A DNA stretch of 64,000 bases, taken from NCBI GenBank assembly GCA_028715345.1, contig JAQUSB010000002.1:675-64674 (forward strand), given 5' to 3'. Below are positions 6,027-14,044 of this stretch, piece by piece. This stretch comes from Candidatus Omnitrophota bacterium (lineage in GTDB: Bacteria; Omnitrophota; Gorgyraeia; 2-01-FULL-45-10). Position 1 is the stretch's first letter; the number at the start of each line of letters is the position of its first letter. The notes beneath the pieces are model-generated. The model saw only the letters and a list, made by a program, of their open reading frames with translations. It was not told the DNA's origin and ran no database searches. A program made the position numbers and the translations under genes.

Positions 6027-6740
6027 ATGGCGGCAAGCCGAAAGAAGACGATCTCTCACGCAGACCAATTCGAAGCCCTCTCGAAGGTCAGTAAGACCAT
6101 AACGTCAAATCTATATCTCGAGGACATCCTTAAGCTTATAGTGACCGTCACGGCGGAGATAATGGATTCGAAGATATGTTCCATAATGCTTCTCGACGAT
6201 AAGACCAAAGAATTGGTCTTAAAAGCAACGCAGTCGATGAGCGAAGTGTACAATAAGAAGCCGCCGCTTAAGCTGGGTGAGGGCATAGCAGGTAAGGTCG
6301 CCATTGAAAATAAGCCTAGGGCTATATTCGACCTTTCGAAAGAACCGGAATACAAATACAAAGACATCGCCGTCAAAGAAGGTTTGAAGTCGCTTTTGTC
6401 CGTGCCTCTGGCCGTGAGGGGAAAAGTGATCGGCGTATTGAATAACTACACTTCGCACCCCCACAAATTCACCAAAGACGAGATAAACATCCTTAATACC
6501 GTCGCCAGCCAGGCCGCCATCGTCATCGACAACGCGGAGCTTATGGTAAAAACGAAGGTGGTCCAGGAGGAGCTCGAGACGCGCAAGCTCGTCGAGCGAG
6601 CTAAAGGCATCCTCATGCGCGAGCAGGGGCTGGGCGAAGATGAGGCTTTCCGAAAGATACAGAGACAAAGCATGGATATGCGAAAATCGATGCGCGAGAT
6701 AGCGGAAGCGATAATACTCATAGAGAACATGAAAAAATAA
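6027..6740 (+). CDS. GAF domain + ANTAR domain RNA-binding antitermination regulator (paralog 1)
   Basis: 237 aa; N-terminal GAF-like fold; C-terminal ELETRKLVERAKGILMREQGLGEDEAFRKIQRQSMDMRKSMREIAEAII is a canonical ANTAR helix pair; ~60% identical to ORF 60379..61074. Confidence 0.75.
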   Translation: MAASRKKTISHADQFEALSKVSKTITSNLYLEDILKLIVTVTAEIMDSKICSIMLLDDKTKELVLKATQSMSEVYNKKPPLKLGEGIAGKVAIENKPRAIFDLSKEPEYKYKDIAVKEGLKSLLSVPLAVRGKVIGVLNNYTSHPHKFTKDEINILNTVASQAAIVIDNAELMVKTKVVQEELETRKLVERAKGILMREQGLGEDEAFRKIQRQSMDMRKSMREIAEAIILIENMKK

Positions 6741-8577: not shown

Positions 8578-8616
8578 GCCCTTTTTGCGCCATGACGCGC
8601 GAGAAGGGCTTTTTTT
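8578..8616 (+). terminator. intrinsic terminator after nadE
   Basis: 13-bp GC-rich stem (GCCCTTTTTGCGC / GCGCGAGAAGGGC, with G-U pairs) + hexaloop, followed by TTTTTTT. Confidence 0.6.
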
Positions 8617-8648
8617 ATTCAACTGGAACAGAAAAAGGAGAAAACGTT

Positions 8649-9890
8649 ATGAAACAGCTGCGAAAAATTTATTTGATATTGACCGCGTTATCAATTATGG
8701 GTTTACAGGCGCCGTGCCTGCATGCGGAAGACAAACCGGAAGGGCTTGCCATGAGCGCGCTGGGTAAAGCAGGGCTTTCAGAATTTCTCGACAAGGCGGG
8801 TATAAAAATATACGGCTATGCCGAGGGCGGTTATATGTACGACGCTACCGCTCCGCAGCCTTACGCCGGACCGGCCTTTCTGGCATTCAATAATTTAAGG
8901 AATACTCCCATCGTCGATAAAATAAGCCTTAACGCCGAACGGACGGTCGATCCCGCAAAGAAACAATTCGACCTCGGCTTCCGGCTGGAAGGTATATGGG
9001 GATACGACGCGAGATTCATACATTCCAACGGGCTCGGCGATACGCAGACAGGAAGGTACCAGCTTGACCCTCTGCAGGCGTACGTCGATATGGCGCTCCC
9101 TTATGTACCGGTAAAGATCCGGGCGGGCAAATGGATAGAACTGGCGGGTTTCGAACATTTCAGCGCGAATCTTTACGGGGCGTTCGGAGACCCTATGAGA
9201 GCCCTATATTCCTACAGCTACCAGTTCTTTTACGCCGAGCCGGGAACTCAGACGGGCGTCCTCGGCACATACGTGCTTAATCCGCAATGGACGTTCGATT
9301 TCGGATTTACCGAGGGCTGGAACCAGTCCACACGCAATACCGACGGGTACTTGGACCTTTTAGGACGCGTCATTTACACGCCGACGGACAGGACCGCCGT
9401 TACGCTCGTCCTGAACGTAGGCCCGGAATATCCCATAGGCGTTGGGCGGGGGCTGCCTGCTGGGGACACCAAAAACTGGTGGACGGCGATCGACCTGGTC
9501 ATTACGCATAAGCTCACCGACAAATTGAGCCTCGGTACAGGGATCGATATCGTTAACGCGCCGCATATACCCGGCCTGGAGCGGGGATCCAAACAATGGG
9601 GAGGTATAGCCGGATACGCGAGTTATGCCGTCGCTCCGCATTCAACGGTCAATACACGGCTCGAGTGGTTCAACGACTCTTCGGACGGTTTCGCTACCGG
9701 GGCGGGGACGGGAGCCAATTATTACGAAGCGACCCTGGGGGTAGCGGTGAAACTTTTCCCGAAAGATAAGATATTATCCAACTTCCTGTTCAGGCCCGAG
9801 GTGCGCTACGACTGGTCCGACCATGCGGTTTTTGCCGGAGGCGACAGGAGCCAGGTAACGCTGAGCGGAGATGTACTGTTCACTTTTTAG
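8649..9890 (+). CDS. outer-membrane beta-barrel porin (nitrogen cluster-associated)
   Basis: ATG 8649 within ORF 8592..9890; signal peptide ending LHA; alternating aromatic beta-strand pattern; C-terminal ...VLFTF with terminal Phe typical of OMPs. Confidence 0.55.
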   Translation: MKQLRKIYLILTALSIMGLQAPCLHAEDKPEGLAMSALGKAGLSEFLDKAGIKIYGYAEGGYMYDATAPQPYAGPAFLAFNNLRNTPIVDKISLNAERTVDPAKKQFDLGFRLEGIWGYDARFIHSNGLGDTQTGRYQLDPLQAYVDMALPYVPVKIRAGKWIELAGFEHFSANLYGAFGDPMRALYSYSYQFFYAEPGTQTGVLGTYVLNPQWTFDFGFTEGWNQSTRNTDGYLDLLGRVIYTPTDRTAVTLVLNVGPEYPIGVGRGLPAGDTKNWWTAIDLVITHKLTDKLSLGTGIDIVNAPHIPGLERGSKQWGGIAGYASYAVAPHSTVNTRLEWFNDSSDGFATGAGTGANYYEATLGVAVKLFPKDKILSNFLFRPEVRYDWSDHAVFAGGDRSQVTLSGDVLFTF

Positions 9891-9945
9891 GTAAGTAAAG
9901 GTGCAAGGCGGTTAAAGACCGGCAACAAAAAGAAAGGAGAAGGTT

Positions 9946-11181
9946 ATGATAAACTCAGGTGACACAGCTTGGATCCTGATGTCGACGGCGCTCGTTATGC
10001 TGATGACGGCGCCGGGGCTCGCCTTTTTTTACGGCGGCCTGGTGCGGCGCAAAAATGTCCTCGCCACGATGATGCAGTCGTTCTTCGTTTTATGCTTGAT
10101 CAGCATTCAGTGGATATTGTGGGGGTACAGCCTGTCGTTCGGCCCAGACCAGGGCCATTTCATAGGCAGTCTGGCGTGGTTTGGATTAAAAGGGGTCGGG
10201 ATGGCGCCAAACCCGGATTATTCCTCGACGATACCGCATCTTCTGTTCATGGCATACCAGATGATGTTTGCCGTCATTACGCCGGGGCTCATAACAGGCG
10301 CTTTCGCCGAAAGGATGAAATTTTCGGCATATGTGCTCTTTACCTTATTATGGGCGACACTGGTCTATGATCCCGTCTGTCACTGGGTCTGGGGAGCGGG
10401 CGGGTGGTTGCGGAACATGGGCGCCCTGGATTTTGCCGGCGGGACTGTCGTTCACGTCTCTTCGGGTATATCGGCGCTCGTCTGCGCTTTAGTGCTTGGA
10501 CGCAGGAGAGGCTATGGACGCGACCCGATGCCGCCGCACAACCTGCCGCTGACCATCCTCGGCGCTTCCTTATTGTGGTTCGGGTGGTTCGGTTTCAACG
10601 CAGGTTCGGCGCTCGGCTCTACAGAGCTGGCGGTCTGGGCATTCATTGCCACGAATACGGCCGCGGCGGCCGCGGGCCTTACGTGGATGTTCATAGAGTG
10701 GAAGGCTACCGGCAAACCTACGATACTCGGAGGCGCTACCGGAGCAGTGGCAGGGCTCGTCGCGATAACTCCCGGGGCAGGGTTTGTATCACCGATGTCA
10801 GCGATACTCATAGGAGCGATCGTGGCGTTCGTTTGCTATGCGGCAGTCGCTGTGATAAAACTTAAGCTGGCCTATGACGATTCTCTCGATGCGTTCGGGG
10901 TGCACGGGGTAGGCGGAACGCTCGGGGCACTGCTTGTAGGGCTATTTGCCCAGAAACTCATCAACCCCGCGGGAAATAACGGCTTGTTATTCGGCAATGC
11001 TGCCCAACTCGGAGTACAGGCGATAGGCGTAGCCGCTACCATAGTATATTCCGTGGTCGTTACTTTCATACTGCTGAAAGCGGTTGATGCCATAGTAGGA
11101 TTGAGGGTGCCTGACGAAGAGGAAGTGGTCGGGCTCGATATTACCCAGCACGAAGAGAGCGCGTACACGCTGCTGGATTAA
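9946..11181 (+). CDS. amtB: ammonium transporter
   Basis: 411 aa; DTAWILMSTALVMLMTAPGLAFFYGGLVRRKNVL Amt signature, 11 TM pattern. Confidence 0.9.
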   Translation: MINSGDTAWILMSTALVMLMTAPGLAFFYGGLVRRKNVLATMMQSFFVLCLISIQWILWGYSLSFGPDQGHFIGSLAWFGLKGVGMAPNPDYSSTIPHLLFMAYQMMFAVITPGLITGAFAERMKFSAYVLFTLLWATLVYDPVCHWVWGAGGWLRNMGALDFAGGTVVHVSSGISALVCALVLGRRRGYGRDPMPPHNLPLTILGASLLWFGWFGFNAGSALGSTELAVWAFIATNTAAAAAGLTWMFIEWKATGKPTILGGATGAVAGLVAITPGAGFVSPMSAILIGAIVAFVCYAAVAVIKLKLAYDDSLDAFGVHGVGGTLGALLVGLFAQKLINPAGNNGLLFGNAAQLGVQAIGVAATIVYSVVVTFILLKAVDAIVGLRVPDEEEVVGLDITQHEESAYTLLD

Positions 11182-11191
11182 GGAGGAAAAG

Positions 11192-11533
11192 ATGAAACTG
11201 ATAATCGCTATAATCCAGCCTCATAAGCTTGAGGATGTGCTCCACAGGCTCGACAGCGTCGAGATACACCTGCGGACCGTAAGCAACGTCCTCGGCTGCG
11301 GGAGGCAAAAAGGCAGGACCGAAATATACCGCGGGAGAAAAGAGGCGGGCAGCCTTCTGAAGAAGGTCAGGCTCGAGATCGCGGTGAACGAGCCGTTCGT
11401 GAGGCCTGCCCTGGACGCCATAACGCTCGGCGCGCGTTCAGGCACCATCGGGGACGGGAAGATATTCATACTTCCTATGGAAGGATGCGTCAGGATAAGG
11501 ACTGGAGAGGAGGGCGAGGTCGCTATAGGTTAA
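11192..11533 (+). CDS. glnK: nitrogen regulatory protein P-II (Tyr51 replaced by Glu)
   Basis: 113 aa; GCGRQKG T-loop base and SGTIGDGKIF B-loop; immediately downstream of amtB; T-loop reads YRGRKEAG so no uridylylatable Tyr51. Confidence 0.85.
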   Translation: MKLIIAIIQPHKLEDVLHRLDSVEIHLRTVSNVLGCGRQKGRTEIYRGRKEAGSLLKKVRLEIAVNEPFVRPALDAITLGARSGTIGDGKIFILPMEGCVRIRTGEEGEVAIG

Positions 11534-11546
11534 ACGTCATTTTTAC

Positions 11547-11575
11547 TTGCATTCGCGAAGGGAAGGTGGTATACT
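11547..11575 (+). promoter_or_regulatory. sigma70-like promoter for glnN leader
   Basis: TTGCAT-17 nt-TATACT; predicted start ~11582 coincides with first leader hairpin. Confidence 0.4.
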
Positions 11576-11581
11576 TAAATT

Positions 11582-11661
11582 GCACGTGGAAGTGCTTTTA
11601 TTTAAAGTAAAAATGAACAGAGACGTTCGTATTACAAAAATATGAATGTTTCTGTTTTTTT
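11582..11661 (+). promoter_or_regulatory. glnN 5' leader: dual small hairpins with hexaloops overlapping an intrinsic terminator (ANTAR-target-like antitermination element)
   Basis: hairpin GCAC-GUGGAA-GUGC (11582..11595); hairpin GAAC-AGAGAC-GUUC (11615..11628, loop A1/G4); 13-bp terminator stem 11616..11628 / 11644..11656 + U-run to 11661 uses the same nucleotides as hairpin 2. Confidence 0.5.
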
Positions 11662-11722
11662 ATTGGCTTTCGTGGTAATATATATCGGAACAATATAGCT
11701 TTTAAAATCAGGAGGAAATTCG

Positions 11723-13693
11723 ATGAACGTTCGGCAAAAAGCCCTATTCAGCATTAAAAGCATAGAGCCCCAAAAAGACAGGCTTGCGAAAAAGGTTTCG
11801 TCATATTTCGGTGAAAACACATTCAGCCTGTCGGCTATGCAGAAACATATTTCCAAAGGCACATTCGAAGCCTTCAAACGCTGGATGAGCGAGGGCGCCA
11901 TCATAACGCTCGATCAGGCAAATGAGATAGCGGCCGCTATGAAAGAGTGGGCGATATCCAAGGGCGCCACGTATTATACTCACTGGTTTCAGCCAATGAC
12001 GGGCCTGACCGCCGAAAAGCATGACAGCTTCATCTCCGTGACCGGGCAGGGCAAGGTCATCGAAAAATTCTCGGGCAATAAGCTGATCCAGGGCGAGCCC
12101 GACGCGTCGAGTTTCCCGTCGGGAGGCATAAGAGCGACTTTCGAGGCGAGAGGCTATACCGCATGGGACCCATCGAGCCCGGCTTTCATCATAGAGTCGA
12201 GGCTCGGCAAGACGCTTTGTATACCGACGATATTCATTTCCTATCACGGCGCGGCGCTTGATAAAAAACTGCCGCTTTTGCGCTCCGACGAAGTTCTGAA
12301 CAAATCGGCCGTAGCGTTATTGAAGCTTTTCGGCCATAAAGATGTTAAGAAGGTCGTGTCCACCTGCGGGCCGGAACAGGAATATTTCCTGATCGATAAA
12401 AATTATTATAACCTGCGCCAGGACCTTTTAATGACCGGCAGGACGCTGGTGGGAGCGGCTTCTCCTAAAGGGCAGCAGTTGGAAGACCAGTATTTCGGGA
12501 CGATAAAGGAACGCGTCCTTAATTATATGTTCGAGGTCGCGGAAGAGGCTTATAAGCTCGGCATACCCATAATGACGAGGCATAACGAAGTCGCGCCGCA
12601 CCAGTATGAATTTGCTCCTATGTTCGAAGAATCGAATATAGCCGCAGACCACAATCAGCTCCTCATGGAATTGATGAAAAAAGTGGCGCTCAGGCATAGC
12701 CTTGTCTGCCTTTTACACGAGAAACCTTTTGCCGGGATAAACGGGAGCGGCAAGCATGTGAATTGGTCGCTAGCGGATGACAAAGGGAACAACCTGTTGA
12801 ACCCCGGCGATACGCCTGAGGATAACCTGCAGTTCCTGGCAGTCCTGGCAGCTGTATTGAGGGCGGTATATCTGCATTCCGACCTCTTGAGAGCTAGCGT
12901 TGCCATGGCCGGCAATGAGCATAGACTGGGCGCGAATGAGGCGCCGCCCGCCATAATAAGCGTATTCCTGGGAAACCAGCTGACAAAAATACTGGACATG
13001 CTCGAAAAAGGAGTTAAGAAATCTGTATCTAAAAAAGACATAATGGATTTCGGTATAGCGCGCCTGCCCAGGTTCAATAAAGACTCCACCGACAGGAACA
13101 GGACATCGCCTTTCGCGTTCACGGGAACTAAATTCGAATTCAGGGCCGTCGGCTCGTCGCAGAATATATCGACCCCCATAACGGTCATAAATACTATCGT
13201 TGCCGAGTCGCTCGATCATGTAGCCGATAAGATAAAAAAGGCTTCGGACGGTAAGGATTTTAACACCGCCGTCCTGAAAGTGGTGGCGGAGATAGTAAAA
13301 GAGACGAAGGATATCCGCTTCGAGGGCAATAATTACTCTCCGGAATGGGTAAAAGAAGCGAAGAAGAGGGGGCTACCCAACGTCGCGTCGACGGCAGAAG
13401 CGTTAAAGGCCCTTACAAAAGAGAAGAACGTAAGCCTTTTCGCGAAATACAAAGTCTTTTCCAAAGAAGAGATGGTCGCCAGGTACCACATCTGGGTGCA
13501 TACTTATAACACGATACTCGAGATCGAAGGGAACACGCTCAATGAGATGGTCAATGCGAGCATCATTCCTGCCGGGTTCGAATACGAAAAATTACTGGCG
13601 GACAATTTAAGCGACCTGGCGAGCCTCAAGAAGTCTTCCGCTCTAAAGGTAGATAAATCGGCGTTTGAAGACCTGAAAGCGCACCTGGCGTAA
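11723..13693 (+). CDS. glnN: glutamine synthetase type III (GlnN), first 656 codons, ends at an in-frame TAA
   Basis: N-terminal MNVRQKALFSIKSIEPQ...FGENTFSLSAMQKHISKGTFEAFKRW typical of GS-III; size and domain order match ~729-aa GS-III when joined to next segment. Confidence 0.85.
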   Translation: MNVRQKALFSIKSIEPQKDRLAKKVSSYFGENTFSLSAMQKHISKGTFEAFKRWMSEGAIITLDQANEIAAAMKEWAISKGATYYTHWFQPMTGLTAEKHDSFISVTGQGKVIEKFSGNKLIQGEPDASSFPSGGIRATFEARGYTAWDPSSPAFIIESRLGKTLCIPTIFISYHGAALDKKLPLLRSDEVLNKSAVALLKLFGHKDVKKVVSTCGPEQEYFLIDKNYYNLRQDLLMTGRTLVGAASPKGQQLEDQYFGTIKERVLNYMFEVAEEAYKLGIPIMTRHNEVAPHQYEFAPMFEESNIAADHNQLLMELMKKVALRHSLVCLLHEKPFAGINGSGKHVNWSLADDKGNNLLNPGDTPEDNLQFLAVLAAVLRAVYLHSDLLRASVAMAGNEHRLGANEAPPAIISVFLGNQLTKILDMLEKGVKKSVSKKDIMDFGIARLPRFNKDSTDRNRTSPFAFTGTKFEFRAVGSSQNISTPITVINTIVAESLDHVADKIKKASDGKDFNTAVLKVVAEIVKETKDIRFEGNNYSPEWVKEAKKRGLPNVASTAEALKALTKEKNVSLFAKYKVFSKEEMVARYHIWVHTYNTILEIEGNTLNEMVNASIIPAGFEYEKLLADNLSDLASLKKSSALKVDKSAFEDLKAHLA

Positions 13694-13915
13694 GTGGTCG
13701 CAAAAATATATTACGTGCGCCGCAACGCCAAAGAGATGATGGATCTTCTCGAGAAGGCGCAGAAGAAACACCACGAGGAACGCGCCGCCATATATTTCAG
13801 CCGGCTGAAGCCGCTTATGGAACACATCCGTAAGCACGCCGACCAGTTGGAATGCGTGGTTTCGGATGAACATTGGGACCTTCCCAAATACAGGGAGATG
13901 TTGTTCGTTAAATAA
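13694..13915 (+). CDS. glnN: GlnN C-terminal 73 codons, same frame as 11723..13693, directly after internal TAA
   Basis: Starts at the codon after the TAA (13691..13693) in the identical frame; open for 73 codons; ends ...WDLPKYREMLFVK resembling GS-III C-terminus; 656+73 = 729 aa. Confidence 0.6.
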   Translation: MVAKIYYVRRNAKEMMDLLEKAQKKHHEERAAIYFSRLKPLMEHIRKHADQLECVVSDEHWDLPKYREMLFVK

Positions 13916-13935: not shown

Positions 13936-13955
13936 CCTGCACTACGTAGTGCAGG
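13936..13955. promoter_or_regulatory. 20-bp perfect palindrome CCTGCACTACGTAGTGCAGG (TGCAC/GTGCA half sites)
   Basis: exact reverse-complement symmetry; between glnN and gltB. Confidence 0.4.
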
Positions 13956-13975
13956 ATAACCGGAAGACTGGACAT

Positions 13976-14024
13976 AGGCGTTCAGATTGGTCATAAGACG
14001 ACCGATTTGAATGCCTATTTTTTT
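13976..14024 (+). terminator. intrinsic terminator with apical GGUC-AUAAGAC-GACC mini-hairpin, 20 nt upstream of gltB start
   Basis: 13-bp stem AGGCGUUCAGAUU / GAUUUGAAUGCCU (three G-U) + U7 run; apex hairpin loop ends GAC like the hexaloops in other leaders. Confidence 0.55.
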
Positions 14025-14044
14025 ATTCAGACAGGTGACTTTTT

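Follow-up and report, generated by a model that had tools for sequence, protein, structure and literature searches.

The type III glutamine synthetase (GSIII) GlnN of Bacteroides fragilis (PDB 3o6x, a 729-aa chain) contains the Pfam domains GSIII_N, Gln-synt_C, and Gln-synt_C-ter and has a C-terminal W-LPKYRE-LF motif. Glutamine synthetase and nitrogen genes are often associated with ANTAR-type leaders (PMC3369936). The target architecture of ANTAR proteins consists of the P1 and P2 hairpins, whose loops carry A at position 1 and G at position 4, with P2 overlapping a terminator (PMC3369936). Ordinary bacterial pseudogenes with an internal stop, such as those flagged by NCBI PGAP, are otherwise full-length homologues with a single nonsense codon.

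We analyzed the glnN locus within a 64-kb stretch of DNA from Candidatus Omnitrophota (the window; the parts of glnN, the two leaders, and the ANTAR-protein gene described below are on the forward strand). The encoded protein shares the three Pfam domains and the C-terminal motif with the B. fragilis enzyme; in contrast, its reading frame is broken by TAA at codon 657, where the aligned residue is His in B. fragilis and Asp or Glu in the Omnitrophota orthologues. The gene also resembles ordinary internal-stop pseudogenes, with no protein accession issued between its flanking genes in the source record, but it is exceptionally fresh, shows no further decay, and belongs to core nitrogen assimilation; thus, a consensus error remains a serious alternative to a mutation. 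The internal stop is an ordinary one-base lesion, i.e., a fresh nonsense mutation or an assembly error, and not a case of programmed recoding.

Reading frame and identity of glnN

The glnN ORF of 656 codons (11723-13693) opens at ATG 11723, with AGGAGG just upstream. Codons 1-656 (11723-13690) end with the residues DLKAHLA, and the in-frame TAA at 13691-13693 occupies codon 657. From GTG 13694, the same frame is open for 73 codons (codons 658-730, 13694-13912), which contain no further stops or frameshifts, include a highly conserved WDLPKYREMLF motif, and end in HWDLPKYREMLFVK. The second TAA (13913-13915) is at the aligned position where all the relatives end, after LF[IV]K, and represents the natural stop of glnN. 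The first-pass annotation had described a TAA that splits glnN into parts of 656 and 73 codons, and the coordinates, frame, and homology all agree with this description. Its total length of 729 was off by one, as the gene comprises 656+1+73 = 730 codons, which is the modal length among the Omnitrophota orthologues.

The identity of the gene as a type III glutamine synthetase, proposed earlier from the sequence, was confirmed by the matches of the 656-aa part to GSIII_N (PF12437, 3e-75), Gln-synt_C (PF00120, 1.5e-20), and Gln-synt_C-ter (PF18318, 1.4e-39). When the stop was bridged, residues 22-730 were colinear with residues 24-729 of 3o6x (E 3.7e-200). The 73-codon tail alone had no Pfam or NCBIfam match. 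It aligned without gaps to residues 658-730 of the closest full-length relative (P0001) with 82% identity (E 3e-41) and matched a GSIII profile built from 47 homologues with an E of 1.6e-39. It is because of this homology to P0001, the GSIII profile, and 3o6x, and not because of the length of the open run, that the tail is assigned as the true C-terminus of glnN, as judged from sequence comparison. The continuation noted earlier is a true open frame, but the accompanying argument that it is unlikely by chance is weak: the chance of a 73-codon open run is approximately 0.025 in random sequence with the composition of the window, and yet an open in-frame extension of at least 72 codons was found in 13 of 53 window genes, mostly through a next gene sharing the frame. 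Elsewhere in the window, neighboring ORFs that share a frame (e.g., ATP synthase gamma/beta and NuoB) proved to be ordinary separate genes.

Codon 657 in related genomes

Among the matches listed, the closest homologues were GSIII proteins of Candidatus Omnitrophota metagenome-assembled genomes (MAGs), with 81-89% identity; for codons 1-656, the identity to Omnitrophota GSIII was 86-89%. The best 120 homologues were 728-750 aa long and all uninterrupted, and each of the 15 complete related genome loci had 728-731 uninterrupted codons. A stop at the position of codon 657 was found in none of the 120 homologous proteins and none of 22 related loci. Thus, the subunit is complete and uninterrupted in all relatives, while that of the window is interrupted at codon 657.

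The aligned column was occupied by Asp in 73 and Glu in 47 of the 120 homologues, with Glu in the nine closest, and the relatives use GAA, GAG, GAT, or GAC at this position. The nearest relative (locus L001) reads CAT CTT GCC GAA GTG where the window reads CAC CTG GCG TAA GTG. The simplest history would be a single G>T transversion at 13691, converting GAA (Glu-657) to TAA. TAC, CAA, GAA, and AAA had been listed as candidates for the original sense codon, and both the aligned column and the codons of the relatives favor GAA. The alignment with orthologues, which had been suggested as a check, returned only Asp or Glu at the stop position. It also contradicts the scenario in which the orthologues terminate at the same place, since the stop is unique to the window sequence.

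A split architecture was absent from the 120 homologues and the 15 complete loci. Recurrent proteins of 122 and 137 aa, named as C-terminal GSIII, were weighed as candidate natural splits; the one that was checked (P0173) starts 27 nt from a contig end and is a contig-edge fragment.

Age of the change

The dN/dS ratio was not computable, as synonymous sites were saturated against every available relative (pS of approximately 0.8); pN and deviations at conserved columns were used in its place. The pN values were 0.10-0.25 for the tail and 0.11-0.26 for the 73 codons immediately 5' of the stop. At columns with at least 95% conservation in the 120 homologues, the window sequence deviated at 0 of 36 positions in the tail and at 5 of 418 in the body. 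By these measures, the tail does not appear to have evolved neutrally for any appreciable time. An undecayed tail leaves two options: a change of very recent or artefactual origin, or a tail that is still translated. Each translation route that was tested has evidence against it (see below), which leaves a very recent or artefactual change.

Translation downstream of the internal stop

Under the reading that we favor, the G>T change at 13691 would have turned the conserved GAA of Glu-657 in an otherwise intact 730-codon glnN into TAA. Ribosomes would stop at this codon, giving a GSIII of 656 residues from which most of a long predicted helix is missing, along with two more helices at the C-terminus and the near-invariant WDLPKYREMLF end. 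This product would most likely be unstable or inactive, and the 73-codon tail would be transcribed and essentially untranslated. The helices were taken from the AlphaFold model of P0001, an 88%-identical proxy, in which residue 657 is inside a predicted helix of residues 645-680, followed by helices 684-712 and 720-729. The model is poor overall (pLDDT 57), with values of 72-88 in the region around the stop, and was used for local helix assignment only. As modeled, the stop would cut a helix in the middle and not fall at a domain boundary.

A different outcome would be a functional two-piece enzyme, in which termination at UAA is followed by re-initiation at the adjacent GUG (UAAGUG) and the 73-residue peptide joins the 656-residue body non-covalently. 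Consistent with this, a start-capable GTG abuts the stop, the tail is perfectly preserved, and the transcript includes the tail, ending at a terminator beyond the second stop. Since the first strong terminator 3' of glnN follows this second stop and not the internal TAA, the transcription unit is still that of the 730-codon gene. However, the GTG is merely the ancestral Val-658 codon, preceded in L001 by GAA in the same way as by TAA in the window, and no dedicated ribosome-binding site is evident: the anti-SD pairing before it (-4.1 kcal/mol) is weaker than that of 70% of the real window starts and resembles that of start-like codons inside glnN. Furthermore, the gene is split in no other genome, the break would fall within the long predicted helix 645-680, and the preservation of the tail is explained equally well by recency. 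We consider the two-piece enzyme to be quite improbable.

Full-length GSIII could also be made by programmed readthrough or suppression of the stop, or by reassignment of TAA to a sense codon; the downstream frame is open and conserved, and the gene is within an actively regulated operon. Against this, the stop occurs in no orthologue. Of the 53 likely genes in the window, 34 end with TAA, which makes it the most frequent genuine stop there and excludes its reassignment to sense. The context of the internal stop is UAA-G, and in bacteria a G after UAA allows efficient termination, as known from E. coli. No tRNA genes were found in the window, hence no suppressor tRNA there, and the RNA of 13680-13800 was not significantly structured (z of -1.66, with 9 of 200 shuffles equally stable). 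Programmed readthrough, which the first-pass annotation had offered as one explanation, is not supported by a non-conserved stop in this context that lacks a stimulatory structure, and we assign readthrough, suppression, and reassignment together only a minimal probability. It is very improbable that the TAA is real and fixed in the lineage with glnN remaining functional, be it as a split dodecameric GSIII formed via re-initiation or through low-level readthrough. The functional readings in total are unlikely.

Nonsense allele versus consensus error

A base substituted during sequencing or assembly and a nonsense mutation of recent date had both been proposed at the outset, and both are still live explanations. 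We give about an even chance to a genuine nonsense allele that arose very recently and is present in the assembled Omnitrophota population, which would make glnN a fresh pseudogene or truncated allele. We infer both that the base is real in the cells and that the truncated enzyme is non-functional. The competing explanation is an error made in the sequencing, the assembly, or the consensus, or else a minority variant that entered the MAG consensus, with GAA as the codon and a normal 730-aa GSIII in most or all cells; it is a substantial possibility that falls short of even.

Several observations fit an error. The sequence is a MAG contig, the codon is exactly one base off a conserved sense codon, the tail shows zero decay, and the regulatory and operon context is intact. 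The whole gene is under strong purifying selection in the relatives, which makes a fixed stop a priori unlikely, and a deleterious stop in a conserved, well-regulated nitrogen-assimilation gene is not expected at high frequency, which counts against the nonsense allele. On the other side, 3,094 bp were cross-checked against independent Logan assemblies without a mismatch, no other window gene looks damaged, and the protein accessions checked around glnN (MDD5427740, 741, and 743 to 748) are consecutive apart from 742, which is presumably the porin. Consensus sequences from short reads rarely contain isolated substitution errors.

The cross-check was based on two Logan contigs from independent runs, neither of which extends to 13691. 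One (L081, SRR21285873) was 100% identical to window positions 10710-12051 (1342 bp), and the other (L082, SRR22315506) was 100% identical to positions 9462-11213 (1752 bp); thus, the same strain was sequenced at least twice. Together with the full-length Pfam matches of the neighboring genes, the 3,094 error-free bases indicate that the assembly is generally accurate, which slightly favors a real variant. In the opposite direction, a stop in a strongly conserved gene with intact partners favors an error or a minority variant.

Exact look-ups in a collection of 15 billion proteins retrieved neither the 656-aa product, the 73-aa product (initiated with V or M), nor tails starting at internal ATG codons. 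The repaired full-length versions (E or Q at residue 657) and guessed partial products were likewise absent from this collection. Scans of metagenome DNA across the junction with an exact pattern and with a synonymous-tolerant pattern gave no match, and no match to the C-terminal 142 aa exceeded 84% identity; thus, the junction is not covered by any independent assembly of the strain. The relatives from the genome-contig scan had at most 89% identity among the matches listed and are not the same species.

Gene neighborhood and ANTAR-type leaders

The gene order is porin (BBP2), amt, glnB (PII), glnN, gltB, gltD, permease, and H+/Na+-pyrophosphatase. The nitrogen genes amt, glnB, and gltBD and the ANTAR regulator are all intact, and the neighbors that were checked were full-length Pfam matches. 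No second glutamine synthetase was found within the 64-kb window.

Two ANTAR-type leaders were identified. The glnN leader (11582-11664) has P1 GCAC[GUGGAA]GUGC at 11582-11595 and P2 GAAC[AGAGAC]GUUC at 11615-11628, with the loops given in brackets; P2 is nested in the 5' arm of a 19-bp intrinsic terminator (11615-11657) followed by a U-run. These P1 and P2 hairpins are kept in the related loci L001, L006, L014, and L022. The glnN-gltB spacer (13939-14025) has P1 GCAC[UACGUA]GUGC at 13939-13952 and P2 GGAC[AUAGGC]GUUC at 13970-13983, and this P2 overlaps a terminator (13974-14018) with a U-run. The P2 pattern was found at these two sites only in 64 kb, compared to 0.05 expected sites, and P1/P2 pairs occur at the same positions in several related Omnitrophota loci. 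As the search pattern fixed some loop positions, the loop bases are to be read within that limit: both P2 loops have A1 and G4, and both P1 loops have G4 only, with G or U at position 1 where the canonical P1 loop and most of the relatives have A.

A gene for a GAF and ANTAR domain protein (6027-6740; Pfam ANTAR 3e-22, GAF_2 9e-21) is located 5 kb upstream, and NCBI names its product (MDD5427740.1) as a GAF and ANTAR domain-containing protein. By co-occurrence, it is the candidate regulator of the glnN and gltB leaders. The locus thus shares with the EutV/eut, NasR/nasF, and AmiR/ami attenuators the tandem P1/P2 hexaloop hairpins, the overlap of P2 with the terminator, the nearby ANTAR-protein gene, and the nitrogen-assimilation targets (PMC3369936). 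It differs from the known ANTAR systems in the sensor of its regulator, which is a GAF domain and not a receiver or NIT domain.

The ANTAR-type leader reported in the first pass is therefore supported by the hairpins, the terminators, and the regulator gene. The argument built on it, that an elaborate leader speaks against a dead gene, does not hold, because the leader, like the tail, would be undecayed after a very recent mutation.

No curated Rfam family was found in the leader or around the stop. A match to mir-2131 at 11605-11664 scored 29.5 bits (gathering score, 92) and was dismissed as spurious; it corresponds to the terminator hairpin of the leader.

Promoter-like elements were observed on both sides of the glnN leader. 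A site of the form TTGCAT-17-TGgTATACT is present at 11547-11575, upstream of P1. A conserved extended -10-like element, TGGTAATAT, is present at 11673-11681, approximately 40 nt before the glnN ATG, and TATGGTAAAATAA is aligned with it in L001, L005, L007, L011, L014, L022, and others. As this element is 3' of the leader terminator, transcription of glnN may also start at a proximal promoter, bypassing the ANTAR attenuator. In the gltB leader, the extended P1 stem is a perfect 20-nt palindrome, CCTGCACTACGTAGTGCAGG, at 13937-13956, which fits the P1 pattern on both strands.

Implications and annotation of the locus

A real mutation would mean that the one glutamine synthetase seen in the nitrogen-assimilation cluster of this Omnitrophota population has just been lost, while amt, glnB, gltBD, and the ANTAR regulator are retained, and would imply a dependence on a partner or host for glutamine. 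Host-dependent lifestyles have been proposed for some Omnitrophota, and such a dependence would fit them, although a single base is not enough to establish it. The general biological importance of the stop is small. Programmed readthrough, recoding, and a conserved two-piece architecture are all without support.

Exact look-ups assigned NCBI protein records, all from one MAG contig of 94,146 bp, to the GAF and ANTAR domain protein (MDD5427740.1), NAD synthase (741), Amt (743), PII (MDD5427744), GltB (MDD5427745), GltD (746), APC permease (747), and pyrophosphatase (748). PII and GltB, which flank glnN, have consecutive accessions; the deposited annotation therefore holds no protein for glnN, presumably because the NCBI pipeline classed it as a pseudogene. 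Instead of two separate genes for the two ORFs, we suggest the single label glnN (GAA>TAA at codon 657, pseudogene or possible assembly error). The ORF of the porin (BBP2/OmpL-like, 8592-9890), taken from its first ATG, was absent from the protein collection; accession 742 is presumably the same gene, probably annotated by NCBI from another start codon.
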